Positions 22,731 to 55,611 of a stretch of DNA of 55,611 nucleotides are shown here, in pieces (position 1 is the stretch's first letter; each line of letters opens with the position of its first letter). This DNA is from a virus (taxonomy: Duplodnaviria; Caudoviricetes). A program made the translations under genes and the position numbers. The notes under the pieces were generated by a model. That model had not been told where the DNA came from and made no database searches. It saw nothing but the letters and a program-made list of their open reading frames with translations. The stretch spans positions 1 to 55,611 of IMG/VR virus record IMGVR_UViG_3300020042_001002; one strand, given 5' to 3'.

Positions 22731-24611
22731 TCAATGGATGTGTGCGTAGGTAGTCCCAAACTGAACGGAGATGTCCAACTTGACGTTTAGCTTGAGCTTC
22801 TCATTAACCTTCTCGATTGCCCAGCGGAGTATGGATTCATGTTCTTCCTCCTCGCCCACTGGAATGCGGTTGATCGACTCATCGTGGAACTGCCCAATGA
22901 TGTTTGGTCGCTGGGTCAGGTAGTGTGCAACCCATTGGTCAAAGCAGTAAGCACCAGTGGATTGGTTGAGGGTAGAGAAAACATCCTTCTCATACCGCAA
23001 GGAATACCAGAAGCCATTCACGGGGTTCTTGACCCACATCTGCTTGTTCAGAGTTCTAATCTTCTGTTCACTAGCAAACTGTTTGACCGCCCAGTTACGC
23101 TCCCAGTAAGCATCAAGTAGTACACCAGCTTCTGCCTGTGTCATACCCGTAGTTCTTGATAGCTTCGCCTTACCCACACCATAGACTGCGGAGTAATTCA
23201 CAGGCTTGAACTTCTTACGAACCTTCTTGATAGCCTTGAACCTAAGTATGTCATTCACTGTGTCTTCATCAGCTCTAGTGTAGAAGTCGTAGTCATCTGA
23301 GTTGATATAGCCAGCACGTACTGCAAGGTCAAGGTGTTCATCAAAGCCCTGTACAGACATCTCAGCTACATAGTCAGGGTCATATGGGAAGATGTAGTGA
23401 CGCTTGGTAGTAGCTTCAAGGGACACCATGTCTGCACCACACAGCATCGTACCCTCATCAGCAATCAATGCACCCCTGATCTCCTTACCCCACACCTTGT
23501 CAACTCCGGGAAGATTTACCAGAGGCTTCTTGTGCTTGAAGCGTAGGGTATTGGTTAGCCCACTGATCTCTGCCTTGACATACCCATTGACCTGAGACTC
23601 AAGCATCCCCTCGAAGGTAGACTTGCGGTGTTGGATAACAGTAAGCCCATCAAGGACTTCGACAGTGGGGTTCTTATCAATTAGAAGTTTGACTGAGGGG
23701 GTAAGCTCACCATCTTTACGAACCTGAGGCACAAGACGATCCGTACCATCATCATTCTTCTTATAGTCAAAGGTACATGGTTGCCAACCCATAGACGTAA
23801 GCCAGTCCTTAACCTGATCTGGTGAGTTAGGGTTTGGTGGTTCAGTACTCTTAACGACAGTAATGTCACCCTCGTAGAACAGGGGTAGGTCATTGTCCTC
23901 TAGGGTGTTGAACCATTTAATTGCAGCCTCAGTATGAGTACCATCCTTCTTGGTCATCTTCTCAGGCTTAGACTTGGTGACATACTTGAACACAGTCGGC
24001 ATGACCTGCTTGAGTTCCTCTACCTTTTCTTCCTGTGCCTTCTCCAGTATAGCGATAGACTTCTCTACCAGATCAAGGTCAACCCTCCAGCCAGCCTCCT
24101 CAGCTAGGTATGCACACTTCATCTTGAAGGTAAGGTACTGGAAGAACTTATCCATAGTCTCCTTGTCCTTACCATAGAGCATACGATACTTCTTTAGTAG
24201 GTCCATCCAGAGTAGCCAGTTGATCTTCACATCCTCTTCACAGCGATGCTTGTACTCTTCATAGGTTAAACCTTCCCAGTCAGTCACGACAGGCTTAGGT
24301 ACACCAAAGTCTACCCCAAAGGACTCAAGGCCATGAGAAGGACGATCAAGGTTAATCACCCAAGACATGGGCAGTGTGTCGTATAGCTTGGCTTTGATCT
24401 TAATACCAAGGATTTTCTCTAGTACAGCAATATCAAACCTAATAATATTGTGACCCACGAGGATAGTCTCCGTAGTCAGTAGCTCACGCATATCATTGTA
24501 GTCATGTAGGCTAGAGAAAGTTACACCATCACGAGTGTAAGACAGCACATGAACCTTAGTTGCCACATCAAGGAACCCATCAGTCTCACAATCTATTACG
24601 CAAACTGTCAT
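22731..24611 (-). CDS. polA: Family A DNA polymerase with 3'-5' exonuclease
   Basis: IDCETDG, GHNIIRFD, RCEED; motif A GADMVSLE, motif B RKKFKPVNYSAVYG, motif C QFHDE. Confidence 0.93.
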   Translation of the reverse strand: MTVCVIDCETDGFLDVATKVHVLSYTRDGVTFSSLHDYNDMRELLTTETILVGHNIIRFDIAVLEKILGIKIKAKLYDTLPMSWVINLDRPSHGLESFGVDFGVPKPVVTDWEGLTYEEYKHRCEEDVKINWLLWMDLLKKYRMLYGKDKETMDKFFQYLTFKMKCAYLAEEAGWRVDLDLVEKSIAILEKAQEEKVEELKQVMPTVFKYVTKSKPEKMTKKDGTHTEAAIKWFNTLEDNDLPLFYEGDITVVKSTEPPNPNSPDQVKDWLTSMGWQPCTFDYKKNDDGTDRLVPQVRKDGELTPSVKLLIDKNPTVEVLDGLTVIQHRKSTFEGMLESQVNGYVKAEISGLTNTLRFKHKKPLVNLPGVDKVWGKEIRGALIADEGTMLCGADMVSLEATTKRHYIFPYDPDYVAEMSVQGFDEHLDLAVRAGYINSDDYDFYTRADEDTVNDILRFKAIKKVRKKFKPVNYSAVYGVGKAKLSRTTGMTQAEAGVLLDAYWERNWAVKQFASEQKIRTLNKQMWVKNPVNGFWYSLRYEKDVFSTLNQSTGAYCFDQWVAHYLTQRPNIIGQFHDESINRIPVGEEEEHESILRWAIEKVNEKLKLNVKLDISVQFGTTYAHIH

Positions 24612-25056
24612 TCAGTACTTTCTCCCTCGCTATTTCGTAGACTTGGCTTGCTTCTTCTGGGGTTTCAAAGGTTCCAATGTTTTTTCCCTGCAAGACTGCC
24701 GCGTACCTACCACTAGGTCTTAGGTAATAACCCTTAACACTTCTATTCAAGTTGTTTTGTTGTTGCGTCACAACTCGTAAATTAACCCACCTGTTATCTG
24801 TCCTAATGCGATTAATATGGTCGATCTGACCCAAAGGATCATCACCTGTGACAAGTTTCCAAATAACTCTCGCCAAACGATAGTGCTTCCTTTGAAAGCA
24901 GACTCCCAGATAACCACTGATGCCCAGAGAGCCTACCTCATAACCTAAGGGTGTTCTTTGAGAGGTTTGTTTAAGAAGGGTTACGATCCCTGTGTCTTTG
25001 TCATAGTTAAAGCACTCACGTAGCAGGTCAACATCAGGCAGTGGAATATGTTTCAT
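24586..25056 (-). CDS. HNH homing endonuclease
   Basis: IDHINRIRTDNRWVNLR plus an AP2-like C-terminus (IGTFETPEEA). Confidence 0.85.
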   Translation of the reverse strand: MKHIPLPDVDLLRECFNYDKDTGIVTLLKQTSQRTPLGYEVGSLGISGYLGVCFQRKHYRLARVIWKLVTGDDPLGQIDHINRIRTDNRWVNLRVVTQQQNNLNRSVKGYYLRPSGRYAAVLQGKNIGTFETPEEASQVYEIAREKVLNDSLRNRL

Positions 25057-27660: not shown

Positions 27661-27991
27661 CTCTGTAATCCCCTACCTTACGATCATCATCTACTTCATC
27701 AAGCCATGCGTCTTCATCATAGGGATCACTATCATCAATGTTCTCTTCAAGATGTACATCATGCCCAGCAATCTCTAAGGCTTTCTTCATACCCTTGATG
27801 AAGTTCTCCCACGTATCTATGTCCATGTCCTCATCCCCTCCCTCATTTAGCACACCACCAAACTTATCGTCTCGTGAGGTAGACCATACGTGCTGACCAT
27901 TCTCATAAAGATGGATAACGAAGTGAGTACCAGAACCGCAGCACTCGCAGTACCAGTTGGTTGTCGTAAGGCTAATTGTGTAGTGGCTCAT
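27647..27991 (-). CDS. Acidic hypothetical protein with CxCC motif
   Basis: ORF overlapping both neighbours. Confidence 0.55.
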   Translation of the reverse strand: MSHYTISLTTTNWYCECCGSGTHFVIHLYENGQHVWSTSRDDKFGGVLNEGGDEDMDIDTWENFIKGMKKALEIAGHDVHLEENIDDSDPYDEDAWLDEVDDDRKVGDYRDDLL

Positions 27992-29067
27992 TCCTTGTAC
28001 CCTTTCCTAGATGCTTGTGCTGTCTTAGCCCCCTCATACGTATGCTTCATGTATGGGTTGAGACTAGAGATGTTCTTGTGGCCTGTCACCTGCATAATTC
28101 CCGTGCTGTCAACCCCCGCTGCTACGAACTCAGTGATGGCAGTCTTTCTCAGATGACCAATCTTTAATTCCTCTGGTAGTCCACACGCTTCCTTCACCTG
28201 TCGAAGTATAGGGCCAATCGCCATCGGGTTCAAGGGTACATATGCTTTGTCAGATGATCTATGGTTAGGGATGACTAACTTTTGGAACCCATAGTCAGCC
28301 TCTTGTTGCTTAAGCAGGGACAACAGTGAACCCTCAATAGGCATCTCTACCTCAGCCCCACGCTTGGACTGCTTGATCTTCACCTTGGCACGAGTGAGGT
28401 CGAGGTTGCTCCACTGTAGGTGTGTAATGTCTGTAGGTCTTTGCGCCCACTCATAGCACATCATCACCAGTAAGCCTATGTTTCTCCACTCGAACTTAGT
28501 AAAGGCAGTGGCAATGAATAGTTCTACCTGTGCCTGTGTCCAGATGGGTGTGTATGCCTCATGCTTAACCTTCTTCACCCTGCCCATAGGGTTGTCGCTG
28601 ATGAGGTCCAGTGACCTTGCATAGTTCAGAACGACAGAGAACAACCTCGCCCTCTCGTTAGCCTTAGCCACTGTGTGTGCCTGTACCCAAGCCTCATACA
28701 CATCGTTGCAGATACGTGCTGTCAGCCTGTCCAGTGGCATCTCACCAAGGGTGGACAAGGATACCTTAGCTAACTCTATCTCGTACTTGAGTTGGGATGA
28801 TGGGGCTAGTGATACGAAGTGCTTAGATGCTAGATAGTATCCGATAATATGTTTGATCTTTGAGGTCGGACCTACTGTGCCAGCCTTGATCTCACCCTTA
28901 CGATAAGCCTCAATAGCCTCAAGCAAACGGGGAACTTCATACCTTGCAGTGCGACCATCACTGAACGTCTGCGACTTAACTACACCAGCCTTACGGGCTT
29001 CCTTTGGTGGGGTGAACCTGTGTACTGTCGTTCCATCCTTCAGCAAAACCTTCTTGGTGTACTTCAT
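27988..29067 (-). CDS. Tyrosine recombinase / integrase
   Basis: Likely start ATG 29067 after AGGAG; catalytic R (AQRPTD), K, HxR (GHLRKT), H (TGH) and Y (NPY) all present. Confidence 0.88.
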   Translation of the reverse strand: MKYTKKVLLKDGTTVHRFTPPKEARKAGVVKSQTFSDGRTARYEVPRLLEAIEAYRKGEIKAGTVGPTSKIKHIIGYYLASKHFVSLAPSSQLKYEIELAKVSLSTLGEMPLDRLTARICNDVYEAWVQAHTVAKANERARLFSVVLNYARSLDLISDNPMGRVKKVKHEAYTPIWTQAQVELFIATAFTKFEWRNIGLLVMMCYEWAQRPTDITHLQWSNLDLTRAKVKIKQSKRGAEVEMPIEGSLLSLLKQQEADYGFQKLVIPNHRSSDKAYVPLNPMAIGPILRQVKEACGLPEELKIGHLRKTAITEFVAAGVDSTGIMQVTGHKNISSLNPYMKHTYEGAKTAQASRKGYKE

Positions 29068-29075
29068 GTTGTCTC

Positions 29076-29090
29076 CTACTGTCGACACTA
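29076..29090 (-). repeat. Collapsed variant of the early-region hairpin repeat (CTACTGTCGACACTA)
   Basis: Same flanks as the six full copies with the centre deleted; abuts the recombinase RBS. Confidence 0.65.
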
Positions 29091-29110
29091 AAAATAGTAG
29101 AAGGTAGCAC

Positions 29111-29139
29111 TTGCCCTTTGTCTGAACCTGTGCTACCCT
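29111..29139 (+). promoter_or_regulatory. Putative antisense-oriented promoter
   Basis: TTGCCC-N17-TACCCT with TG extension. Confidence 0.35.
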
Positions 29140-29141
29140 CA

Positions 29142-29212
29142 ATCTCTTTATGTATACTTAAAGAGATACTTAAGTAATATTACTTATTAAGAATAAGTAC
29201 TTAAGTATTCTT
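29142..29212. repeat. AT-rich stacked palindromes (possible origin or recombination site)
   Basis: TAAGTAATATTACTTA (29171-29186), TAAGTACTTA, TACTTAAGTA x2. Confidence 0.6.
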
Positions 29213-29473: not shown

Positions 29474-30322
29474 TCAGAACCTCCATGCACCCTCATCAAT
29501 TATGTTCTCAGGGTGGTACTCACCATGCTCTTCGTCGAAGCAACCATTACCACAGCATTCGTCGTAGTCCCCATACATATGGTCTTCAAGGATGTCAGGG
29601 ATTTCTGAGGGTTCAATCTCAGCCAGCACCTTGTACTCACAGACACGCATCTTGGCGAAGTCATAGTCGTAAGGCACAGCTACTACGTGGGCAGGGTTCA
29701 CCTCAACTACCACAGTACGAGAGTGGTCAGCATTAGCAAAGTGTTCGAGGTACTTATCAGCACAGATGTGCAAGCCAGACGAACAGGTATGCTTGGGGTC
29801 ATCGTCAACCATAGCACGATCCATCTTCACCACAGTACCAATGCTGTTGTCAAACTTACCAGAGTGGATGTCTTTCCAGTCCTTGCTGATACGCTTGAAG
29901 GCAATGAAGTTACCATCCGGGGTGATAGGTGCATCGAACTTTTCAAGGAACTGATACAGACATTCACGAGAACGATACGATGGGTTGAGCATCAGGTTCT
30001 TGAGGAACTTAACCCACGGCATAGCATCGAAGCCATCATCCAATAGGTCCAAGAGCTTGTCAGTCAGGGCATTATGGATTTCCTCGCCCTTGTAGTAGAC
30101 AACACCGCCCATGACCTCAACATCGTGATCATACCCAGAGGTGGACTGACGGATGTTCTCCTCACGATCCATGAGTTTGACGATAGTAGATACGTCATGT
30201 TCAGGTTGACGTAGAAGTTCAAACAGTCTGTCAAAGTTCTTGTGACCTGACACAATGGTCAGCACCTTACCATCAGCAAAGACAGTAGCCGAATAGTCTG
30301 AGAGTGTGTAGGGAATACGCAT
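29474..30322 (-). CDS. rIIB: rIIB-like protein
   Basis: NPSYRSRECLYQFL, ITPDGNFIAFK, CSSGLH, VAVPYDY, KMRVCEY. Confidence 0.85.
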   Translation of the reverse strand: MRIPYTLSDYSATVFADGKVLTIVSGHKNFDRLFELLRQPEHDVSTIVKLMDREENIRQSTSGYDHDVEVMGGVVYYKGEEIHNALTDKLLDLLDDGFDAMPWVKFLKNLMLNPSYRSRECLYQFLEKFDAPITPDGNFIAFKRISKDWKDIHSGKFDNSIGTVVKMDRAMVDDDPKHTCSSGLHICADKYLEHFANADHSRTVVVEVNPAHVVAVPYDYDFAKMRVCEYKVLAEIEPSEIPDILEDHMYGDYDECCGNGCFDEEHGEYHPENIIDEGAWRF

Positions 30323-30326
30323 TGAT

Positions 30327-32276
30327 TTACTCCTTGAATGCGTTGAGGTTGTCGATCATTTCGATGTAGTCCACGAAGGCTTGTTTCATGTCCTTCGAGT
30401 TAGGGTCTAGCTTAAGAAGGGGATACTTGTCAAGTATTATCTTCAGCTCTGCCTTCTGTTGGTTGTCGTTGAACCCACCAAGACCAAGACGGGTTATCTG
30501 TATCTCCCATTGACCATGCGTCAGGCCCAAAAACTTCTCAGGTGATTTAGCCGCAGCCTTCCTAGCGAAGTCACCTACTGGCCCAGCCAAGCCAGCATAC
30601 TGTGTGAAGTTAGTGAAGGGATACTTGTCATACCTTGCACCATAGATAGCACGTGCTGCCTTCTCGTTATCCTTAAGCAACACATCCAGTGCAGGTTCGA
30701 TCAGCTTCCACTTAGGGTTAGCCTCGAACTTCTTCCACATAGTCTTAGGTACAAGCAGGATGCAGGGAACCTTGAGCATCTCCTGAGCAAAGGAGCGCAG
30801 TTGTGTGAGGTGGTTTGGGTAGTTGTTGTTGGACATAGGGTAGTAGTACCCGCCACCTTGGAACACTGCATCATCCATAGAGTATACTTCCTGATACCCA
30901 TCAGGGTGGATGTAAGACACACTAACCTTAGACCTTGTGGTAGTACGTGGGCCAGCATCAGACAAGTCCTTCACATACTTTACAGGGTAGTCCAAGTCCT
31001 TAAGCATACGCTCAACCTCAGCCTTCTGCTTCATGTCAGACAGGTCAGTACGAACCCAGATGAAGTAGCTGTAATCCTTCAAGCTAGAAGCGATACGAGT
31101 AGCAGCACGGGCATTACTCTTCTTGTCATTCGTATCCTGAATGAAGATTGTGTAGTCCTCTTTTACCATCACATTACGATCATCACCCCAACCAACTGTC
31201 TTACCACCACGGCTACGATACCCTGAGTACAGCCCAGTGATCTGATACTCATGGCAATCCCAGTACTTAGGCAACTCCTTACCCTTGTACTTAAGGCTAG
31301 GGTCTTTGCTAGTCAGGTGGTATCGTAGCTTAGGCCCCATCTTAGCAGCCCTGAATAGCGTAGGCTGTGCATCAACCTCATCCTGCATCTTCTGGTACAG
31401 GTTAGCTGTCACCTCATCCATACGCTTCTTGATGTTCGTAGCGGTAGGATCATGGGGGCCAAACGATAAGGCTTCACGAGATGCAGTCACCTCAAGGTCG
31501 CCAATGTCAAACTGAACGACCACATCAAAGTGACGATCTAGGTACTGTGTAGGGATAGGGTACATGACGCAGCCCATCTGAGCATAAGCACCATGCAGTC
31601 GGGTATCCTTGTAGATGTAGTACCCATCACCCTCGAACACCTTATTCACCCCAGCGAATTGCTTATCCTTGGAGTTGGTCACACGGGGTGGCACAGAGAA
31701 GCCATAGGAGACGATCTCAGCGGCCTCTTGGAACTGGCGTACATCATCCCGCTTGACAGGGAAGGACACCTCTAGGCCGCTCTCCTCGTTCGTAGGCATG
31801 GGTGGTGCAAGGACATGGAGTTGGGGGGAACCATCAGGCCCCAATTGTACTGTGTAGTAGGCGATCATCCCCTTGTGACGGGACACAACAGAGAACGTAT
31901 CGGTGTATGACATAGGGGACATACGACCTACACCCCACTTACCTACCGCAGTGTTAGTGTTCTCCTTAGTGGAGTGACCAAGCACTGTGTAGAAACCTTC
32001 CATGTCCTCATGTGCAATGCCGGGTCCAAAGTCACGAACAGAGAACGTAGGGGTGATAGAGGTGGGGAAGGTCACATCGAATGGTACATCCTGCTTACCC
32101 ACCATGACATGGGCATCGAAGGCATTGGACCAAATCTCACGGGTGATTGACTGAGGCTTGTTAGAGTACAGCCCGCTGATCACCATGTGGAACATCTTAC
32201 CTGATGCTTGAATGGTGAAGGCTGTTGATGATGAAGCGTTGTTGTCTACACTGCGTAGGCTAGTGTTCATTCTCAT
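30327..32276 (-). CDS. rIIA: rIIA-like protein (GHKL ATPase N-terminus)
   Basis: LYSNK, REIWSNAFDAH, VRDFGPG, STK, GKWGVG, SREAL. Confidence 0.85.
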   Translation of the reverse strand: MRMNTSLRSVDNNASSSTAFTIQASGKMFHMVISGLYSNKPQSITREIWSNAFDAHVMVGKQDVPFDVTFPTSITPTFSVRDFGPGIAHEDMEGFYTVLGHSTKENTNTAVGKWGVGRMSPMSYTDTFSVVSRHKGMIAYYTVQLGPDGSPQLHVLAPPMPTNEESGLEVSFPVKRDDVRQFQEAAEIVSYGFSVPPRVTNSKDKQFAGVNKVFEGDGYYIYKDTRLHGAYAQMGCVMYPIPTQYLDRHFDVVVQFDIGDLEVTASREALSFGPHDPTATNIKKRMDEVTANLYQKMQDEVDAQPTLFRAAKMGPKLRYHLTSKDPSLKYKGKELPKYWDCHEYQITGLYSGYRSRGGKTVGWGDDRNVMVKEDYTIFIQDTNDKKSNARAATRIASSLKDYSYFIWVRTDLSDMKQKAEVERMLKDLDYPVKYVKDLSDAGPRTTTRSKVSVSYIHPDGYQEVYSMDDAVFQGGGYYYPMSNNNYPNHLTQLRSFAQEMLKVPCILLVPKTMWKKFEANPKWKLIEPALDVLLKDNEKAARAIYGARYDKYPFTNFTQYAGLAGPVGDFARKAAAKSPEKFLGLTHGQWEIQITRLGLGGFNDNQQKAELKIILDKYPLLKLDPNSKDMKQAFVDYIEMIDNLNAFKE

Positions 32277-32286
32277 ATCGTATCTC

Positions 32287-32311
32287 CTACTGTCGGACCA
32301 TCCGACACTAC
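32287..32311 (-). repeat. Hairpin repeat copy 1 (CTAC TGTCGGA CCA TCCGACA CTAC)
   Basis: Between the tRNA 3' end and the rIIA RBS. Confidence 0.9.
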
Positions 32312-32323
32312 ATTTGAGGAAGT

Positions 32324-32400
32324 TGGTCTACCCAAGAGGACTCGAACCTCTGACCTTGAGTTTAGAAAACTCTTGCTCTATCCAACTGAGCTATGGGTAG
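32324..32400 (-). tRNA. tRNA-Arg (anticodon UCU)
   Basis: Cloverleaf folded by hand: CTACCCA/TGGGTAG acceptor, GCTC D arm, TTTCTAA loop, GGTTCGAGTCC T arm, encoded CCA. Confidence 0.92.
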
Positions 32401-32407
32401 TAACACA

Positions 32408-32620
32408 TTAATCTTTAAACGAGTTCAGATACTCTGTCAAGTCAGTTGCTGCATCCATATACCCAGTACGAGCATAGGTCACACCAGTGATAGCACCCGC
32501 TTTCTTGAGGATGTCACCCTTACGCACACCACGTGGCGGCTGTAACCCCACTGCTAGTAGGCGAAGGTGTCCCCTCAAGAAGATTGCTTGAACACGGGGT
32601 GCTGTGGTGTCGGTGATCAT
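32408..32620 (-). CDS. Hypothetical early protein
   Basis: 70-aa ORF with ATGA overlap. Confidence 0.6.
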   Translation of the reverse strand: MITDTTAPRVQAIFLRGHLRLLAVGLQPPRGVRKGDILKKAGAITGVTYARTGYMDAATDLTEYLNSFKD

Positions 32621-33015
32621 GGTGATACTCCAAATCTTAGGGTTGATGATACTCGTTTACGTTTGTAAGGGCTGTCGTCTATCCAAATGCCCTGCCTGAA
32701 CTCAGGGTCAAACAACTTACACTTACGTACCGCTATTGCATGGCCTGTGATAGTCACATGGTAGTCATAGTCCGCATTGTAGTCAGTGTTGTACCAACCC
32801 ATCAGGGTAGGCTTATCCTTGTAGTGATACTCCTCTGTCCAATTCAAGCCAAGCGCATCAATCACCAGCATCCTGTCCCAGATAGAGGTCACGTTGTCCC
32901 GTCTGCATAGGTCAAAGAACAAACGCTCTGCCTCTTGGTAGGATACATTGGCAAGCATAGCTACCGCTGCAATCCCACAGTTGTCCCTGCCATAGGGTGT
33001 GTCGTCTGGGATCAT
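32617..33015 (-). CDS. Putative papain-like (C39-like) cysteine peptidase
   Basis: DNCGIAAVAM, GHAIAV, LFDP consistent with a Cys-His-Asp triad. Confidence 0.55.
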   Translation of the reverse strand: MIPDDTPYGRDNCGIAAVAMLANVSYQEAERLFFDLCRRDNVTSIWDRMLVIDALGLNWTEEYHYKDKPTLMGWYNTDYNADYDYHVTITGHAIAVRKCKLFDPEFRQGIWIDDSPYKRKRVSSTLRFGVSP

Positions 33016-33140
33016 GGTTTCTCTAACTCCTTTCGTATCTCTGCAAGCAAGTCAGTCAGTGCCTTGTTACTACGCTCAGATGTCTTAGGTAGTAGCTTCT
33101 CACACATACCCAAGACCTTAAGTTCCAGTGCCTTAATCAT
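33012..33140 (-). CDS. Small hypothetical protein (42 aa)
   Basis: AGGAG RBS supplied by repeat copy 2; translated by hand. Confidence 0.55.
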   Translation of the reverse strand: MIKALELKVLGMCEKLLPKTSERSNKALTDLLAEIRKELEKP

Positions 33141-33148
33141 ATCATCTC

Positions 33149-33172
33149 CTACTGTCGGACCATCCGACACTA
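33149..33172 (-). repeat. Hairpin repeat copy 2
   Basis: CTAC TGTCGGA CCA TCCGACA CTA; provides the TAG stop of the upstream ORF and the RBS of the downstream ORF. Confidence 0.9.
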
Positions 33173-33391
33173 ACCTGCAAAGTGGCTGAGTTTACGGGCG
33201 GGATTACCCTTGCGCTCAAGGTATACAGTACGCTTACCCATGTGGATGGCAGTCATGCACTCACTATGCTGCACCCCCCACCCTCGTGACTTATACTTAC
33301 GCTTACGGGTCAGGCCCTTGATACCTAACACATTGAAGCGGAAGCCTTTTGTGCTGTCGTTTAGTGCCTTAGTGGCGAGGATAATGAACAT
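33170..33391 (-). CDS. Basic hypothetical early protein
   Basis: AGGAG RBS, 73 aa. Confidence 0.65.
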   Translation of the reverse strand: MFIILATKALNDSTKGFRFNVLGIKGLTRKRKYKSRGWGVQHSECMTAIHMGKRTVYLERKGNPARKLSHFAG

Positions 33392-33405
33392 CTATTTTCT
33401 CCTGA

Positions 33406-33996
33406 TCAGATGTTGTGGATACGCTTCCAGACTACCCATGTAATAGCCTGTATCTCGAATGCTTTTAAGCCAACACGTTTGCCAGCCCTCTTATAAGCAT
33501 CCTGTAGTTCCTTGTATTGACCCTTAGTGATATTAACTTCAGGTTCTGTCAAGCCAATCCGCTTACCATTGGCTATATTAAAAGCATGACCATCAACAGT
33601 ACACGTATTGATACCCATGATATTAAGGAAGAACGAGGTGATCTTCTGCCCATTAAGAACCTCAATTACCTCAGCGTCAGTGGCTGGCATCTGCTCAAGT
33701 ATTAACCATGCCTTGTCCCGCATTTTAAGGTAGGTGCTGGGCTTACACATCTCCACTGTACCACCACCCAAGAACACAGCGATCATGTCTGACGCATTAG
33801 ATACGTTACGTTCCCACTTATTGTTAGGCGAGAGTGCGGCGATCACACCAACGACAATACGAAGGGGTAGGTCATGGGCATAGGCAATGTTGGTCGCCTC
33901 ATATTGTGCTGATCCATACCATGTAGTGCCATTGTACACCTCACCTGTCGTGGCAAGGCGAAAGACTTTAAGGATGTTACGAACGATGGTAGTCAT
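33406..33996 (-). CDS. Conserved phage early protein, possibly HhH DNA-glycosylase-like fold
   Basis: WY, VIAALSP..KWERN, KITSFF.NI, TVDGHA, QAITWV motifs. Confidence 0.55.
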   Translation of the reverse strand: MTTIVRNILKVFRLATTGEVYNGTTWYGSAQYEATNIAYAHDLPLRIVVGVIAALSPNNKWERNVSNASDMIAVFLGGGTVEMCKPSTYLKMRDKAWLILEQMPATDAEVIEVLNGQKITSFFLNIMGINTCTVDGHAFNIANGKRIGLTEPEVNITKGQYKELQDAYKRAGKRVGLKAFEIQAITWVVWKRIHNI

Positions 33997-34005
33997 GTTG
34001 TTCTC

Positions 34006-34030
34006 CTAGTGTCGGACCATCCGACACATC
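34006..34030 (-). repeat. Hairpin repeat copy 3 (8-bp stem)
   Basis: GTGTCGGA CCA TCCGACAC directly before AGGAG. Confidence 0.88.
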
Positions 34031-34033
34031 AAT

Positions 34034-34063
34034 AAGGTAGCAGGGTTTATTCCCATCTGTCAA
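34034..34063 (-). promoter_or_regulatory. Putative early sigma70 promoter
   Basis: TTGACA-N18-TACCTT immediately upstream of repeat copy 3. Confidence 0.55.
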
Positions 34064-34479
34064 CTGTAGTAGGGTCGCTGCTTTGGGTAGTGGGTGTCAG
34101 GCATAGACCCAGTGGTGCAGCGCACAGTCAGCTCTCTGTCACCATTGATCACGTTCTCTCGCTCCACATCATCCCACAGTTTATCTCGATAGGCAGCAGC
34201 CTCAGCGTAGTCATTGAAGAACCGCATAGCACCATGCCATGTTAGTCCACCAGCATAGTAGTGCCACCCACCCTCTTCAGGCCCACCATACTGGCTATAC
34301 TGGGTGTATACACCGACAGTCCACCATGTGGCAGGTTCATCAGCCGTATGACTAACGAGTTGCCCTTGTGCGTATGGTCGCCCATCATCCCATGTCACCT
34401 CATCATGGCGGAATGTAGCTTCACCCCAACGGGACTCATAGGCATATATGGGTAGTGTCTCACTCAGGTAGTCACTCAT
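34060..34479 (-). CDS. Hypothetical early protein (YGGPEEGGW motif)
   Basis: Likely start ATG 34479; YGGPEEGGWHY motif. Confidence 0.6.
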   Translation of the reverse strand: MSDYLSETLPIYAYESRWGEATFRHDEVTWDDGRPYAQGQLVSHTADEPATWWTVGVYTQYSQYGGPEEGGWHYYAGGLTWHGAMRFFNDYAEAAAYRDKLWDDVERENVINGDRELTVRCTTGSMPDTHYPKQRPYYS

Positions 34480-34681
34480 CAAAGCACCCATCCTTGAACA
34501 TATCTTCCACCATACCAGCCAGATCATCAAAGGATGAATAAGACCGAACACTACTAAGGTTAACAGCCAGATACCCAGAGAAGGGGTCGAACACGAAGGT
34601 CCACCTGTCCACTGTTACGCTAGTCATACCGATACCAAAGCCCTGCATCAGGGTATAGATTACCTCACGCTTGCTCATCAC
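34472..34681 (-). CDS. Hypothetical early protein
   Basis: 69-aa ORF overlapping its neighbours. Confidence 0.5.
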   Translation of the reverse strand: MMSKREVIYTLMQGFGIGMTSVTVDRWTFVFDPFSGYLAVNLSSVRSYSSFDDLAGMVEDMFKDGCFDE

Positions 34682-34842
34682 AGCCCCCTTTCATAGCGGC
34701 TCAATTCCCTTACATAATCCACACGGCTTTCGGGGTAGTCCTCTGCCACCTTTTCCCAAGCCTCATACTTATCCTCAGCCAGAACCTCTACACTAAAGTC
34801 CTCGCCACACTCACCGACCAGTACCACATGAAACTTTTTCAT
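34678..34842 (-). CDS. Small acidic hypothetical protein (54 aa)
   Basis: ATGA overlap; MKKFHVVLVGECGEDFSVEV; translated by hand. Confidence 0.55.
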   Translation of the reverse strand: MKKFHVVLVGECGEDFSVEVLAEDKYEAWEKVAEDYPESRVDYVRELSRYERGL

Positions 34843-35060
34843 TGGGATAACTCCACCATCTTGTTCAACACACGTTCACGATACTCATACTCATCAGCAT
34901 GAGCCTTGCACTCAGCAGTGGTAGCAGCACCAAACCTACGCACACCACAGATGTTGAGGATCATCTGACTACCACCTCCTTCCCCCACCTCATACTTCTG
35001 TCCACCCTGCCCATAGGCAACCCAGCATCCGTCCTCATGTATGATCCACTCTAGCAACAT
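34839..35060 (-). CDS. Hypothetical early protein
   Basis: ORF in frame with 34839-35078; likely start ATG 35060. Confidence 0.5.
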   Translation of the reverse strand: MLLEWIIHEDGCWVAYGQGGQKYEVGEGGGSQMILNICGVRRFGAATTAECKAHADEYEYRERVLNKMVELSQ

Positions 35061-35446
35061 CACATAAACCCCAGCCATTCACCAGCCTCATTGCGACCCA
35101 TATCTATACGCTCGTGATACTCAGCACGTTCATCACCCCAGCCATCACCATGATCATCATCATAGGAGTGACCATACGGATCGTCATCCTCTTCCTCTTC
35201 CTCATCTACTGTCGGATCGTCCGACACATAGTGCTTGGCAATCTCCCGATAGTTGATCGAACCTAGGGCAACACTGAGTAGGTCAGCCATTAGTGGATCA
35301 AGGTTATGCACACTGTCATGCAAACAGTCTACTGTCTGACGGATAAAATCCTCAGTGATCTTCTGACCACCCTCTGCCTGTTCGACAAAGGAATCCCCCA
35401 GCCACAGGTTCACAAGCCAAGTCTCATGGTTTGACCAGCCGTTCAT
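35060..35446 (-). CDS. Hypothetical early protein with acidic C-terminal extension
   Basis: NGWSNHETWLVNLW N-terminus; contains repeat copy 4 in frame. Confidence 0.65.
   Translation of the reverse strand: MNGWSNHETWLVNLWLGDSFVEQAEGGQKITEDFIRQTVDCLHDSVHNLDPLMADLLSVALGSINYREIAKHYVSDDPTVDEEEEEDDDPYGHSYDDDHGDGWGDERAEYHERIDMGRNEAGEWLGFM
35206..35230 (-). repeat. Hairpin repeat copy 4 (loop variant, intragenic)
   Basis: CTAC TGTCGGA TCG TCCGACA CATA. Confidence 0.85.
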
Positions 35447-35660
35447 AGTCCATCCTCCATTTCAAGGTTCATAAGAGTAGCCCACTCATCATCAGTCACA
35501 CCACTGATCAGAAACTCACGATCACCCACACTCAGGTGGGGCATACAGTTTTGGATCATCTGCCCACTCACCCATGCCTGATACTCATGCGGTTGCACAT
35601 CAATATCCATAGTGCGGGTGATACCTGATAGCGTCGACGTTCTAGTGATTAGCATTGTCA
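35443..35660 (-). CDS. Conserved hypothetical early protein (start approximate)
   Basis: AAGGAG RBS before MTMLITRTS; IQNCMPHLS..DREFLISG motif. Confidence 0.6.
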
Positions 35661-35691
35661 TTCTCCTTGGGGTTAAGCGGATGGTCAAACC

Positions 35692-35716
35692 CTACTGTCG
35701 GACCATCCGACACTAC
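35692..35716 (-). repeat. Hairpin repeat copy 5
   Basis: CTAC TGTCGGA CCA TCCGACA CTAC just after the stop at 35720. Confidence 0.9.
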
Positions 35717-35719
35717 AAA

Positions 35720-36001
35720 TTAAAAGTTTGCCACACCCTCATTCAACACACGGGTAAAGGCTGCATCCACCTGATCCAGATCAGTCAGCCAGATGTTCAC
35801 ACCTGTCTTACGATCATCCAGTTCGAGACGCTTGCGGGCAAAGGTGACACCCTCGTAGAGAAGGGATGCCTCAAGGTGCATATAGGTATCCGTCAAGGAC
35901 ACCAACAACACACGGGTGATATTGTGATCACACTCATCCACCCAACGCAGGTCAACGCTAGTCAACCACACATCAGCAGTTTTGATCTTCCAATCCATCA
36001 C
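35720..36001 (-). CDS. Hypothetical early protein
   Basis: 93-aa ORF overlapping the upstream stop. Confidence 0.55.
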   Translation of the reverse strand: MMDWKIKTADVWLTSVDLRWVDECDHNITRVLLVSLTDTYMHLEASLLYEGVTFARKRLELDDRKTGVNIWLTDLDQVDAAFTRVLNEGVANF

Positions 36002-36210
36002 TTCACCCCCACAATCAAGCCATCTTTCATCTTCACCTCAGCGAAGAACTCTCTGCCCACACCTGTGATATGGGGGCGATTAGCCACGACGAACGATCCC
36101 GTGGGCATATACTCAGCACCGAACAGGCTTGTCTCAATGTGACGCAGCGACTTGCCCACATTCTCTTTCAAGATTTTCTTTGACGGGTACACCACAACCA
36201 AAGTCATCAC
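35998..36210 (-). CDS. First early gene, hypothetical protein
   Basis: AAGGAG RBS; YPSKKILKENVG..IETSLFG.EY. Confidence 0.65.
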   Translation of the reverse strand: MMTLVVVYPSKKILKENVGKSLRHIETSLFGAEYMPTGSFVVANRPHITGVGREFFAEVKMKDGLIVGVK

Positions 36211-36223
36211 GTTTTCTCCTTGT

Positions 36224-36248
36224 CTACTGTCGGACCATCCGACACTAC
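36224..36248 (-). repeat. Hairpin repeat copy 6
   Basis: CTAC TGTCGGA CCA TCCGACA CTAC between the first promoter and the first RBS. Confidence 0.9.
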
Positions 36249-36267
36249 ATTTCGTTTCAGTCCATAT

Positions 36268-36296
36268 AGAATGCCACCCACCACCCTATCTGTCAA
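36268..36296 (-). promoter_or_regulatory. Putative major early promoter
   Basis: TTGACA-N17-CATTCT with TG extension. Confidence 0.6.
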
Positions 36297-36299
36297 GGG

Positions 36300-36880
36300 T
36301 TTTGGCCCACCTCTTTGTTCCATACACATCTGTATCAGCCACACACTAGCCCACCATTTATCAGCCCTTAGGGCTATACGCTCACGCCTAGGTATCATGG
36401 CACACACCACACAATAGCGGCACACACCACCACGCCCACCACCCACCACATCATGACGCACCCATGACTAGCGCACACACCACGATCACGCACACCACAA
36501 GCACAAGCCTGACAAGCGCGCCCACGACCCACCACCACCCATCTGTCATAGCCGCAGCACCACGATAGCATACACGCCTATGTAGCGCAAGCCTGTGCAT
36601 CGCCATGCCTAACGCATTGAAATCCCTAGGGATTTTACAGAATGTATCTTTACCTTTAGGTAAGTTTGGCGACAGAATCCGGGGGTTATAGTTAAATAGG
36701 GGATAGGAGGGGTGCTACAGCATCAAGTTATCTCTTGGCTAGGGTGGCCTAGGACAGCACTGTCTTAGCTCTGTATGGCTCTCCTATGGCCTCCTATAGG
36801 TATCTGGATGGTGTTACCCCCAATGCGGGTCTATCCTGATGCTAGGAGCCTAGGTGACTACAGAATTATAGATTTATTTG
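36300..36880. other. Non-coding divergence region, probable site of the physical genome ends
   Basis: No credible ORF; C/A-rich low-complexity tract and a palindrome at 36620-36635. Confidence 0.5.
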
Positions 36881-36890
36881 AAATGAGGTA

Positions 36891-36919
36891 TTGACAAACA
36901 GGAGAACTGCGGGTATCAT
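36891..36919 (+). promoter_or_regulatory. Putative sigma70 promoter
   Basis: TTGACA-N17-TATCAT. Confidence 0.65.
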
Positions 36920-37080
36920 AGTAAGATACATAATGAGATACACGATGTAGAACCATAAGGGTTCATTATGAGATACACTATGAGAAGCCTTATGAGATAC
37001 CTAAGTTAGTAATACTTAAGTTAAAAAAGCTTAAAGAACCTTAAGCTAAACATTATGTATCTCTTTATGTATCTTAAGAT
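36920..37080. repeat. AT-rich iteron-like repeat cluster (possible origin)
   Basis: ATGAGATAC x3, AAGATAC, inverted GTATCT x2, several CTTAAG. Confidence 0.6.
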
Positions 37081-44547: not shown

Positions 44548-47500
44548 ATGTCAACGACCAAACCTTTGCAGCATTTTCTCTTGCTAATCAAGATAGAAAG
44601 AAATCTTTACTTCAGTATGTCTCTGAGGGTGCTACTAATGCAGACCTTGAAGCTGCTGGCTATACACCTGCTGAAGTAGCTGCTGCATTTCCCCCTGTAA
44701 AAGAATTAACTAGGTCAAAAGAGTTTGATCGTGATCGTCAGGCTGGTGCAAACCCAGATACGCTACAGGAAGTAAAACCCTCTTTTTTACAAAGAGTTGG
44801 TGACTCTCTTTTTACTCCGCCCAGTATTGATGGTACATACTATGATCCAAAAGGTTTACCTATAGGTGCTATGCCAGATACAGATCGTATTTGGGGTATG
44901 GATGACGAAGGAAACCCTGTTAGGGTGACTGCCACAGGTGATAGATATATCATCCCAAAGTTGACCCCAAGAGATGAGAAAAAAAGAAGTTTAGATGAAA
45001 AAGTAGATATTTTTAAAGGTAAAGTTGCCCCTATTTATGAAGCAATAAAAGAGAATCCCCTTGGGGTAGCAAAAGACGTAGGTCTAGGTGTTGCAAAAAG
45101 TGTGTGGAATACAATAGGAGCTTTTAATAATCCTAATCCCACAATCGGGGATGCTATGGATGTGGCAGGATTAGTTTCACTCCCTTCTGCACCGGGGCTA
45201 TTTACTAAATTTGATCCCAATGTACTTCGTATGTTTGCTGGGCCAGAAGCTAAGAACTTCCCACATTTGATGGAAGCTGAGGCAAGTGTTCGTCGTAAGG
45301 CAGGTGAAGACCCTCAGAAAATCTGGGAAGATACTGGCATTCAATTCTTGCCTGATGGTAGACCTATATTTCAAATTGACCCTGCTGGAGCTAAAATTTT
45401 AGATTTTAATTTTTTTAATCAAGCCATACCTAAATTATCTGCTGAAGATGTGGCAAATGGTGGCGATGGTCAATTTAGGCAGAGACTTACTGACCTAGTA
45501 GACTTTCCAGAATTTTTTGAGAACTACCCGCAGCTTAAAGATTTTAATCTTGTTTTTGACCCCAATATTGCTGCGGATGGTCAAATGGATATATCTCGTA
45601 AAACTGTTAAACTCAGTATAGATTTTGTAGAAAATGCTACAGAACAGAAATTAAAAGAGACTCTCCTACATGAGTTGCAGCATGGTATTCAAGCTGCTGA
45701 AAGAACTTCGGGTGGGGCTGCATCTTCTTATTTCTTTGGGAGACAGAAACAGTGGAATTCAACTACTCAACAATGGGAGCGTACTGGTCCATATGTAACT
45801 GGTGCACCAGACATGGAGCCTGATGTACAAAACTACCAAATGCTTCTAGACGATTACATGGATTCCCGTTCAAACTACGAAAAGAATCCCGGATCTACTC
45901 AAGCGGAATCAGATGTAAAACACGCTGAACTTGAGCGTAAGAGAGGTATACTTGTTGAAGACGCTAAAAGATTAAATACTTGGGCTTTTAGAAAGTATCA
46001 AGAGAATCCCGGTGAAATTGAAGCCCGTGCTGCAGGTTTGTGGTCGCAACTTACTCCAGAAGAAAGACTAAAGACTCCCCCACTGGAGATATATAATAAA
46101 GCAGCCACTATGCACGAGCCTTTTGTTTCTAAGCTCGGTGAAACCCCTACCTATGGCGACAACTATATGCCAACCACACGATTTCCTGCTTCCCAAGAAG
46201 AGGCACTGAGTAGACTTGACCCTAATGCTGAGATGACCCCTGCTCAATCAGTAGATCAAACTGTAGCAGCCTTGGGAGAAGTTCCAGTTAAGAAAACATC
46301 TCAAAGATTTATTGAAGGTACTCCTGAGAAAAAACCAATTACATATGTTACCTCAGAAGAAAATATCGTAAGGCAAGAAGACTTTTTAAATTCTACACTT
46401 AAAGATCAAGATTTCGGTGTTGATTCTAGTAATGAAATAGTCCAAAACTCAAATCTTGGTGACGTATCTACAAAAGATTTTTCAAAATTTATATCTGAAA
46501 TTATTTATAGTCCTAATTCTATTAAAGATAGTTCAGACTTTATGAAAAATAACAACATAGTTTTTTCAGATGATGTACTTAAATCCATTGGGTATGTAGA
46601 TAATTCAGGAAATACTACACCTGCAGAAGCTATGAGTGATATTGCAAATCATTTTTATCACACATATCAGCACTCTAATTTTAGAGATTTTTTATATTCC
46701 CATAAGATTGAAGGAATACCAGATAATTTACGTTCTAAACTTGAAAAACCATTTAATACCACTTATAGAAATCCAATCAATGAAGTTATAGATGAGATTA
46801 CTTTTCCAAAGAATGGGCTAAAAGGTTCTGAGTTTATAAAGTTCTTGGATAAAAATCCATCCGTTAAATCTGCACAGTACAATACTATTGATCTTGGCAT
46901 TGATAAAAATAAATCCTATACAAAAGAACAACTATTATCTGCTATTGATCCATATACTTGGGAAACTAAAATAGAAGTTTTACCATCCCCTCAGTATGAA
47001 AATATGCAAGTTCAAAATTTCAATGAGCATGGTTATACAAGCAATAAAAAGGTGGCTGACTACAAAGAACTTGTACTAAGGGTCAATAGAAAAAATCCAG
47101 ACTTACCTACCTTTACTTTGCCAGAAGAAATAAAAAAAGCATATGGCTCTTATCACTATAGTGATGATGTTGTAGCACATACCAGACTCTCTACAGAAAC
47201 TCAAATTGGTACTAATACTAAAGAAATTGTTGTACACGAGTTTCAAAGTGACTATCTGCAAAGGGGTGCAGCTAAGGCTTCTCCAGCGGTTGATATTACA
47301 GAGGCAAAAAGTAAACTGCTTTCTAATATATTGTCAAGTATTCCTAAGGGTACAGATACACCAGAAGTTAAATTTGCAGTAGAAAAAAGCTTTGAAGAGT
47401 TATTAGCTAACGGTGGATACTTTTCTTCTGATGTAGGTAGGAATTTAAATTCTGCCCTTAAAAATGCTGGTATAAGTATTGATGATCGCATTCCAGTAAC

Positions 47501-54404: not shown

Positions 54405-55611
54405 ATGCTTGGTTTTAATCCCCTAGCTTCTACCCCGCTGGGGAGCCTTCCTGCTACTGATAGTGGTCCTCCTGCTGCAATACCTATTATAACTGGTGCG
54501 CCTGTTGTTGGTAGTGCAACTCTTACCCAAAATTTTAGTTTAACTGCGGTAAATATTGCAACAGGATCACCTGTTGTTGGAACCTCTACCTTAGGTTTCA
54601 CTACTCCACTTTCTGCATCCGCCATTACCACTGGTACCCCAGAAGTCAATGCAACTACGCTTATTCAAACTTATGTTGTTGTTCTAACCTCTGGCACATC
54701 TTTTACTGTCCCCGCTAATTGGAATAATGCTGACAATAGTATTGAAGTTATTGGTGCTGGTGGCTCTGGTGCTGCTTCTCGCAATTCGGGTGTCAGATAT
54801 GCTACAGGTGGTGGTGCTGGTGGCTATTCAAAAGTTACAAACCAAACTTTAACTGGTGTAGTCCCATATCAAATAGGTACGGCTGGTGTATCTGTTGTTA
54901 GATCAGCTATTGGAAACACAAACGGGAACGCAGGTACTGCAACATTTTTTGGAAATGCACTCCAAACACTCTCACTAGTTGCTGCAAATGGCGGTGGCGG
55001 GGGTATTGCTGCACAATCAGGGACGGCTGCTGGTGGTATCGGGGCATCACTCACAGGTGCTATTGGAAGTACAAAGTACACTGGTGGTAGTGGTGGTGCG
55101 CAAACCACATCTAGTGCAGTCATTGCATTTTCCAGTGGTGGTGGCGGTGCTGGTGGGCCGCAAGGTGCTGGCAACAACGGTGTCAGTGGTAACACTGATA
55201 GTGGTACTAATGGTGGCTCTGGTGGTGCAGGGTTTGGCGGTATTGCTGGGACTGGTAGGAACTCATCCACCGGGGGTTCAAACGGGGGTAACGGGGCTGA
55301 TATTCTTTCTGCTTATGGAAGTGGTGGCGGAGGTGGTGGCCATAGAACGGTTGATGGTTCTGGAACTTATGTAGGTTTCTCAGGCGGGAACTACGGTGGC
55401 GGTGGCGGTGGTATAACCATAACTGGTGGTACTATCACATCTGGTGCTGGTGCTGGTGGCCTAATTGTTATCCGTTATGTTCCTGCAGTAACTTCAACAG
55501 CCCTAACTGCGTCTAGTATTACCACTGGTACACCTGTTGTTGACAGTGCAACTCTTAGCCAGAATCATGTTATCTCTGCAACAGAAATAACTACAGGCTC
55601 TCCTGTCGTTG
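54405..55611 (+). CDS. 5' part of the junction-spanning fibre protein (continues at 122-1449)
   Basis: MLGFNPLASTPLG start, LTSGTSFTVP Gly-rich domain, no stop before the window end. Confidence 0.8.
   Translation, partial: MLGFNPLASTPLGSLPATDSGPPAAIPIITGAPVVGSATLTQNFSLTAVNIATGSPVVGTSTLGFTTPLSASAITTGTPEVNATTLIQTYVVVLTSGTSFTVPANWNNADNSIEVIGAGGSGAASRNSGVRYATGGGAGGYSKVTNQTLTGVVPYQIGTAGVSVVRSAIGNTNGNAGTATFFGNALQTLSLVAANGGGGGIAAQSGTAAGGIGASLTGAIGSTKYTGGSGGAQTTSSAVIAFSSGGGGAGGPQGAGNNGVSGNTDSGTNGGSGGAGFGGIAGTGRNSSTGGSNGGNGADILSAYGSGGGGGGHRTVDGSGTYVGFSGGNYGGGGGGITITGGTITSGAGAGGLIVIRYVPAVTSTALTASSITTGTPVVDSATLSQNHVISATEITTGSPVV

Follow-up and report, generated by a model that had tools for sequence, protein, structure and literature searches.

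Why should a phage carry six copies of one short palindrome among its early genes and none in the rest of its genome? The question is raised by IMG/VR record IMGVR_UViG_3300020042_001002 (referred to hereafter as the window, by which we mean the whole stretch of DNA analysed: a complete 55,611-bp viral record of an HMO-2011-type podophage, terminal repeats present), in which the sequence TGTCGGA-N3-TCCGACA (N, any base) recurs through the early region. An initial annotation had read these repeats as stop-hairpin-ribosome-binding-site linkers bounding gene cassettes that a nearby tyrosine recombinase might shuffle, with an operator among its fallbacks. We find that the repeats form a dyad-symmetric cis-element (17-bp core TGTCGGA-YSR-TCCGACA, ~23-25 bp with xTAx flanks; Y, pyrimidine; S, C or G; R, purine), conserved and restricted to the early operon, that marks one branch of the HMO-2011-type podophages. 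The element co-occurs and co-varies with an unannotated early protein, here called fam6, whose module has been lost from the window by a deletion of ~1.1-1.4 kb. Of the proposals made for the repeats it is the fallback of an operator that the evidence favours; the cassette-shuffling reading is not supported, since breakpoints lie at gene boundaries and no site-to-site joints were found.

The pattern has exactly six matches in the window (starting at 32291, 33153, 34010, 35210, 35696 and 36228), all confined to 32291-36244, where early genes are read from the minus strand. The whole record holds no others, none of 100 dinucleotide-preserving shuffles yielded a match (0 expected), and a search of the window at up to three mismatches returned no further copies, confirming both the positions first given for the repeats and their confinement to the early arm. 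All six copies are perfect, with 7-bp inverted arms separated by 3 bp, and their consensus in gene sense is (G)TAG-TGTCGGA-TGG-TCCGACA-GTAG. The TGG loop and the right-hand GTAG that had been ascribed to the repeats each hold in five of the six copies (the loop is CGA at 35210, the right flank CTAG at 34010); the left-hand GTAG does not stand as a general feature, being present in just three (32291, 35696 and 36228) and replaced by TTAG, GATG and TATG in the others. It is also true that the TAG stop of the open reading frame (ORF) at 33170-33391 falls in the left flank of the copy at 33153, and that the copies at 32291, 33153 and 34010 run on as (G/C)TAGGAG, directly into an AGGAG ribosome-binding site (RBS) 12-14 nt ahead of a start codon. 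These overlaps are not kept in relatives, where the distance from site to start codon is mostly 12-40 nt, and do not amount to a conserved linker; nor are all copies intergenic borders, as two of the six lie inside ORFs (35210 within ORF 35060-35446 and 36228 within the 63-aa ORF 36207-36398).

Beyond the window, the exact 17-mer with a TGG/CCA centre is present in 19 viral contigs, of which two (L006 and L013) share nothing else with the window and most of the other 17 share further sequence or proteins; CGG and CGA centres bring in additional relatives. With no more than one mismatch allowed, four longer relatives hold 5, 10, 11 and 6 sites, each set grouped in the early operon. No sites were found in the phages CRP-9, CRP-13 and HMO-2011; the element is lacking as well from 80 loci (810 kb) anchored on a conserved 94-aa protein, none of which carries two or more sites. 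The genes flanking the sites are often just 40-70% identical between lineages, or unrelated; the 14 arm bases remain identical. Orthologous copies hold position but bear lineage-typical flanks (GTAG..GTAG in the window; GATA..GATA or GGTC in L011, L018 and G001; CTAC/TTAC with CTTC/CTAA in other groups), such that Site 6 is flanked by GTAG in the window and by GATA in L011. GTAG is hence no fixed tag, the relatives having GATA, CTAC or TTAC instead, and what recurs is that the two flanks are frequently direct repeats of one another (GTAG..GTAG, GATA..GATA, CTAC..CTAC). Distant lineages show a like architecture with both arms changed, to TGTCGAA/TTCGACA in L342 and TCACGGA/TCCGTGA in L276; further arm types are AGTCGGA/TCCGACT, TTCGGA/TCCGAA and CTCGGA/TCCGAG. 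The spacer, too, may have a length of 2 or 4 in place of 3. In bacterial genomes only single sites were seen among the matches listed (at least 120), and the 73-aa protein encoded at 33170-33391 has no relative in bacterial genomes, so that these searches point to no prophage and no host.

Palindromes of other kinds were also encountered among the loci compared. L331 and L336 carry a different dispersed palindrome, GTCCAA-YR-TTGGAC, in 5 and 4 copies (a homologue of fam6 is present in L331 too). CAGCTA-N3-TAGCTG occurs three times in L034, spaced by 30 nt, and GGGTCA-N4-TGACCC three times inside 70 nt in L042.

Conservation of a perfect palindrome may reflect either its sequence or the hairpin into which it can fold. 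A survey of 93 distinct instances in relatives comprised 61 perfect sites, 25 with a T3-to-A substitution in one arm only, 3 CGACGGA, 2 CGTCGGA, 1 TGCCGGA and 1 double variant; a compensating pair was seen in 0 of 93, and none of the arm variants is of G-U type. Folding energies of the hairpins are -11.4 to -12.3 kcal/mol for RNA (z -2.9 to -3.5) and -6.3 to -7.4 kcal/mol for DNA. The T3-to-A substitution breaks the stem, taking the RNA hairpin from -11.4 to -6.8 kcal/mol (z = -0.3), no better than shuffled sequence. Nine kinds of central triplet occur (including TGG, CGG, CGA, TCG, CCG and CCA), and a single genome may hold a triplet together with its reverse complement; positions 8 and 10 nevertheless read pyrimidine...purine in 107 of 108 sites, with C or G as the middle base in 100 of 108, and this symmetric Y..R centre fits a duplex site. 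Flank polarity can be mixed on one transcribed strand, as in L008 (CTAC..CTAG and GTAG..GTAG). Across 82 oriented sites the flanking positions +-1 are Watson-Crick complementary in only 6 (C/C in 27, G/G in 26, A/G in 22), positions +-2 in 58 and positions +-3 in 65. Taken at the level of sequence, the survey suggests that the element is conserved in sequence and not in structure alone.

One local fold stands beside this survey. After Site 5 (window 35650-35722, minus strand) comes GACCATCCG, which is able to pair with the loop-side half of that site, CGGATGGTC; this alternative pairing is the one adopted in the minimum-energy fold of the stretch (-20.8 kcal/mol), and L016 and L011 both retain the partner sequence.

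The protein that follows the element most closely is fam6, an unannotated product of ~190 aa encoded by the first early gene in relatives, with its own TTGACA promoter and a strong terminator. A site stands 37-40 nt upstream of the TTGACA -35 hexamer in L011, L016, L018, L255 and L230, and another lies directly past the fam6 terminator in relatives. Co-occurrence was scored in sets of 80 loci each, anchored on the 73-aa gene, on fam6 itself (identity down to 28%) or on the 94-aa protein. In the 73-aa-anchored set, two or more generalised sites are present in 9 of 11 fam6-positive loci (41 sites in 123 kb) and in 0 of 69 fam6-negative loci (3 sites in 614 kb). When loci are instead anchored on fam6, 59 of 80 have at least two generalised sites, 50 carry perfect palindromes of one family in dispersed copies (in 49 the family is a variant of the present core, in L410 it is unrelated), and in 41 the start codon of fam6 has a site 122-169 nt upstream.

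Site type, moreover, tracks fam6 clade (TGTCGGA-N3, AGTCGGA-N3, TTCGGA-N3, CTCGGA-N3 and TGTCGAA-N2, with TGTCGAA-N3 and TCACGGA-N3 in L342 and L276). Between L363 and L364 the spacer differs at every listed copy (N4 in 3 of 3, N3 in 5 of 5), although the two fam6 proteins have 80% identity, nearly all differences falling within the first ~90 aligned residues.

In the window itself a fam6 hidden Markov model (HMM) finds no homologue. At the position of the scar left there (Table 1), relatives have, in order, a site (A), the TTGACA promoter, the ~190-aa fam6 gene, the terminator and a second site (B), and a ~95% identical metagenome contig (X1) carries ~1.07 kb extra between window positions 36449 and 36609. 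Part of the scar is inverted, over 44 nt (36609-36652) in comparison with L011 and over 79 nt (36609-36687) in comparison with X1. L020 is likewise fam6-less, and retains only the in-gene site, Site 1 having collapsed. The inverted stretch at the edge of the deletion (36609-36687) also has small hairpins, ttacctaaaggtaa and atccctagggat.

Our preferred explanation, to which we give a probability of roughly 0.45, is that the sites are duplex-DNA operators of fam6, symmetric analogues of stoperators through which the early operon would be silenced; DNA binding by fam6, its repressive polarity and its link to lysogeny are all putative. The 7-3-7 geometry is usual for dimeric DNA binders, and the sites tolerate coding sequence. 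On this model fam6 would be made first, from its own insulated transcription unit, would bind as a symmetric oligomer at the 5-11 sites just ahead of early genes, and would silence or throttle the operon either by blocking elongating RNA polymerase or by looping the DNA. The sites in the window would then be recently orphaned and not yet decayed after the loss of fam6, and its phage might be a derivative that is derepressed and solely lytic. Since an integrase is encoded in these phages, fam6 may be their missing lysogeny repressor.

Two known systems inform this model. The stoperators of Cluster A mycobacteriophages, bound by L5 gp71, share with the present sites the placing of many short-site copies in the intergenic gaps of transcribed operons and a proposed silencing by elongation block, here a proposal only (available text of PMC4351075). 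Their repressor, at ~180-190 aa, is similar in size to fam6. Stoperators are 13 bp, asymmetric, oriented with transcription and distributed genome-wide, whereas the present element is symmetric and confined to one operon; the asymmetry that defines a stoperator is not seen, the core being symmetric and flank polarity mixed in L008.

The closest parallel is the 17-bp dyad repeat of Cluster O mycobacteriophages, 5'-TGTTCGGNNNCCGAACA (TGTTCGG-N3-CCGAACA), of which Corndog has 34 copies; in the parts of PMC4351075 available to us its function is unexplained, and the authors infer a dimeric DNA-binding protein. Common to both, on that account, are 7-bp inverted arms with a 3-bp gap, arms that are invariant within a genome, a central triplet that varies, no meaningful orientation, and a dispersed, mostly intergenic distribution (about a third in genes) that is densest in a long operon of small genes and does not coincide with indels. 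The two differ in sequence, phage lineage and host, and the likeness is one of kind: the element resembles the Cluster O repeats in architecture, not in sequence or descent. Copies number 5-11 in the early operon here as against more than 30 genome-wide in Cluster O (same source); xTAx flanks are also conserved here, and a candidate partner is found by co-occurrence and co-variation. An integrase is carried here, whereas the Cluster O phages, as far as that text describes them, are without one.

Several observations weigh against fam6 operators. No DNA-binding domain was found in fam6 by Pfam, PHROGs, NCBIfam and PDB sequence searches, and DUF3102 is matched by just 1 of 34 distant fam6 relatives. 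The window keeps six perfect sites without fam6, meaning either that another reader of the sites must exist or that the loss is very recent. The co-occurrence may partly reflect shared ancestry, its counts not being independent because the loci are related phages, several from the same contigs. A spacer of 2, 3 or 4 bp within one family is easier to accommodate in a hairpin than under a rigid dimer, and the same is true of a spacing change in all copies between phages whose fam6 proteins are 80% identical. The +-1 positions, non-complementary in 76 of 82 sites, resemble a mismatch kept in a folded strand; wobble-type pairs favour the sense strand (72 sense and 40 antisense, counts that are again not independent); and with ~15% of arms variant, ~2 doubly variant sites would be expected, which makes the absence of compensation (0 of 93) weak, suggestive evidence. 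Finally, every site is within transcribed DNA, usually 12-40 nt ahead of a start codon, and this fits an RNA signal too.

Table 1. Positions in the window of the sites, of the scar and of the gene for the second candidate partner (core, the 17-bp core with TGG centre; sequences in gene sense).
Feature	Position	Strand	Sequence and setting	In relatives	Basis
Site 1	32287..32311		GTAG-TGTCGGA-TGG-TCCGACA-GTAG; 16 nt past tRNA-Arg, 14 nt ahead of rIIA start codon	Orthologous copy ahead of rIIA in L018; collapsed in L020	
Site 2	33149..33173		TTAG-core-GTAG; TAG stop of 73-aa gene in left flank; 12 nt before start of 42-aa gene	No copy at equivalent place in L018; T3-to-A variant in G001; 8-nt internal deletion in ~95% identical metagenome contig	
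Site 3	34006..34030		GATG-core-CTAG; 13 nt before start of DUF7178 gene (33406-33996)	Orthologous copies in L011, L018, G001	
Site 4	35206..35230		TATG-TGTCGGA-CGA-TCCGACA-GTAG; in frame within ORF 35060-35446 (..HYVSDDPTVDEEE..)	In-gene copy conserved in L011, L016, L020; middle codon D, G or H, arms unchanged	
Site 5	35692..35716		GTAG-core-GTAG; 8 nt past stop of ORF 35720-36001	L011 orthologue is an uncompensated TGACGGA variant	
Site 6	36224..36248		GTAG-core-GTAG; inside 3' end of 63-aa ORF, 17-20 nt before first early gene (35998-36210)	Orthologous copies in L011, L016, L018	
fam3 (P0056)	36207..36398	-	Gene for 63-aa arginine-rich protein; second candidate partner of the sites		
Deletion scar	36579..36689		111 nt kept in window	~1.1-1.4 kb in place of the 111 nt	blastn against L011; contig X1

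An RNA signal is the first of the rivals, and one that we consider unlikely: the hairpins of the early polycistronic mRNA would be read by fam3, whether as nut/boxB-like elements in multiple copies, as translational operators or as 5' stabilisers, one to each cistron. It gains from the stability of the RNA hairpins, from the position of every copy within the transcribed early operon, from flanks that keep two pairs (UA or AU) beside a kept mismatch, and from the tolerance of 2-4 nt spacers. fam3 is itself suggestive, being predicted to comprise a single helix at residues 4-28 with a disordered tail behind it, and having invariant R5, R7, R11, D13, K14 and W16; this basic helix may be akin to the arginine-rich motif of lambda N. 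A site is always found in the 3' end of the fam3 gene, and in the 73-aa-anchored set (fam3 being detected with an HMM of its first 34 residues) both are present in 8 loci, the protein only in 2, sites only in 1 and neither in 69, the 2 fam3-only loci being exactly those with variant palindromes. Set against this, fam3 is detected in only 27 of the 80 fam6-anchored loci, as compared with the 59 that have at least two sites; a promoter has one conserved copy upstream of it; a single transcript can bear flanks of mixed polarity; and the commonest variant breaks the stem, with neither G-U nor compensated variants. The loop is free in sequence and orientation. In lambda N/boxB an arginine-rich peptide reads a conserved hairpin loop; here a predicted basic single-helix protein is present, but the loop is not conserved.

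The fam6-operator and RNA-signal readings might also be combined, in that sites, fam6 and fam3 together would constitute a new form of early-operon control in a large group of abundant aquatic podophages, one label being shared by all early genes and recognised by fam6 in its DNA form and by fam3 in its RNA hairpin form, with the set of labels in each genome homogenised or co-selected; we regard this as improbable. Flanks and spacer have changed in all copies between phages with 80% identical fam6, which would mean that the labels are homogenised or co-selected as a set. We know of no description of concerted evolution of this sort for phage operators.

Equally improbable, in our estimation, is an element of structure only, without a specific reader, such as pause or attenuator hairpins or mRNA stabilisers kept alike by recombination. 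Stable hairpins do stand at gene junctions, the copies of any one genome have the same type of flank and, in many cases, the same central triplet, and all listed copies switched spacing together between L363 and L364. Against it stand 14 arm bases that are identical across lineages with 40-70% protein identity, and a frequent variant that breaks the stem. There is no U-run past the stem, and the early region has 3 terminator-like hits (3.2 expected), none of them at a site; a repeat of 17-25 bp would, in addition, be a poor substrate for homogenising recombination. Promoter-like hits in the same region number 5 (8.7 expected), only one being near a site.

More doubtful still are selfish palindromes of the kind represented by repetitive extragenic palindromic (REP) elements or miniature inverted-repeat transposable elements, spread or copy-corrected by an enzyme, the 4-nt flanks being target duplications. 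REP elements and integron attC sites are short palindromes able to fold single-stranded, and E. coli REP has a GTAG tag; the flanks here are often direct repeats, and flanks and spacing change in concert within genomes. Yet the copies are syntenic across lineages, not scattered, while orthologues differ in flank; they are confined to one operon, GTAG is not kept in relatives, and the listed bacterial matches are, as described above, all single sites. No HUH, RAYT or transposase domain was found by Pfam and PHROGs scans in the ORFs tested. Integron attC or core-type sites are a poor match, as the 3-nt spacer does not fit.

Recombination sites bounding mobile cassettes, acted on by a tyrosine recombinase or by homologous exchange, were the interpretation first offered, and one that we now find hardly plausible. 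Its attraction is plain: the repeats lie at gene junctions, early gene content varies greatly among relatives, an integrase is encoded at 27988-29142, and the site and the 42-aa and 73-aa genes are arranged, in three lineages, as three rotations of a single cyclic order. We compared the window with L011, L016, L018, L020 and G001, yielding 34 homology endpoints. These lie a median of 16 nt from the nearest gene boundary (random 66.5, P<0.0005) and 154 nt from a site centre (random 183, P=0.18; 5 of 34 within 30 nt), so that breakpoints in these five relatives follow gene boundaries and not the repeats. Contigs from four DNA metagenome runs, compared over 31800-37000, gave 14 joints, of which 0 run from site to site. 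The two readable gene losses both fall between start-codon regions: in X1 the gene 35998-36210 is precisely lost with 6-nt microhomology, and a gene absent from the window in comparison with L011 was lost leaving site and RBS in place. The crossover region of tyrosine recombinases comprises 6-8 bp between inverted binding arms, for which a spacer of 3 bp (2-4 in relatives) is too short, and HMO-2011 has an integrase and no sites. The promoter-early stem-loop (PeSL) elements of T4 are the natural comparison, being repeated regulatory stem-loop motifs between small variable early genes; in the available text of PMC2839356 and PMC4122927 they are ~100 bp, combine a sigma-70 promoter with a terminator stem-loop, and recombine to give indels and mini-circles. 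The element here differs in being 17-25 bp, with no regular promoter part and no site-to-site joints.

Least credible are hairpin promoters of the coliphage N4 type, used by an RNA polymerase of the virion or phage, for although the geometry fits (a 5-7 bp stem and 3-nt loop ahead of early genes, in the available text of PMC4496689), copies stand just ahead of early genes and the portal is related to those of N4-like phages, the same text gives N4 three promoters, specific conserved loop bases and a giant virion polymerase, whereas here the loop is free, T3-to-A breaks the stem, sigma-70-like promoters exist in the region, no RNA polymerase was detected in any large ORF of the window (a very remote homologue could escape), the two largest proteins without assignment resemble polyvalent or ejection proteins, and the available part of PMC6918029, which describes these phages, names no polymerase.

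Two further proteins were considered as partners of the sites and set aside. The basic, all-beta 73-aa protein and its 42-aa neighbour are encoded by every genome that has sites and by none of CRP-9, CRP-13 and HMO-2011, but 71 of 80 viral loci with the gene lack the motif. The 80-aa protein P0055 (37184-37426), at the head of the rightward arm, is near-identical in L276 and L342, whose sites differ. The 73-aa protein is a curiosity in its own right: at least 298 viral stretches encode a relative, residues are invariant at 16 positions with no family or fold match (for the predicted fold, of mean predicted local distance difference test score 73, Foldseek gave no hit at E <= 0.001 and VIA-align a best Z of 5.3), and it always adjoins a helical protein of 42-46 aa (window 33012-33140), in either order.

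The surrounding genome is that of an HMO-2011-type phage without a near-identical named phage among those searched. The portal protein has 72-74% identity to that of Roseobacter phages CRP-9 and CRP-13, and 64% to that of Puniceispirillum phage HMO-2011. From a divergent control region at about 36.3-37.2 kb, a leftward arm carries the small early genes, tRNA-Arg (the sole match to known RNA families in the window), rIIA, rIIB, integrase, ThyX, primase-helicase, family A DNA polymerase, ribonucleotide reductase and PhoH; a rightward arm carries lysis, packaging and virion genes. Directly upstream of the 63-aa gene, the minus strand of 36395-36606 is G+T-rich and encodes tiny Trp/Val/Cys-rich hydrophobic peptides (ORFs of 58 and 51 aa), a stretch conserved in L011 and L016. 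The rIIA and rIIB homologues (29474-32276) have no match in CRP-9, CRP-13 or HMO-2011, and their best protein matches belong to unrelated larger phages. An HNH endonuclease gene (24586-25056) lies between those for primase-helicase and DNA polymerase, with no counterpart in G001, G002 or the CRP phages. The end-open ORFs at 54405-55611 and 1-1449 are probably one gene of ~880 aa spanning the record ends, in the tail-fibre region and without a family hit, and GC content falls to 0.35 at 46001-48000, within a 1695-aa gene (genome average ~0.46).

Contigs 85-99% like the early region (X1-X4, matched over 31800-37000) came from one unlabelled metagenome run and three labelled lake water; given these lake-water runs, the window may represent a freshwater offshoot within a type of phage that is known chiefly from marine waters. 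Phages of the HMO-2011 type are reported to rank with the most abundant in the sea (available text of PMC6918029), and a search of titles and abstracts returned nothing on their gene regulation and none on such repeats.

Recognition of a conserved, lineage-specific cis-element together with two candidate reader proteins turns a blank early region into a testable regulatory circuit. It also supplies a second, independent example of 7-3-7 repeats of the Cluster O kind, now with a candidate partner, and could help to explain both. Should fam6 be a repressor acting at these sites, the window would represent a natural repressor-deletion derivative of a temperate phage, and the finding would bear on how often these abundant phages lysogenise their hosts.

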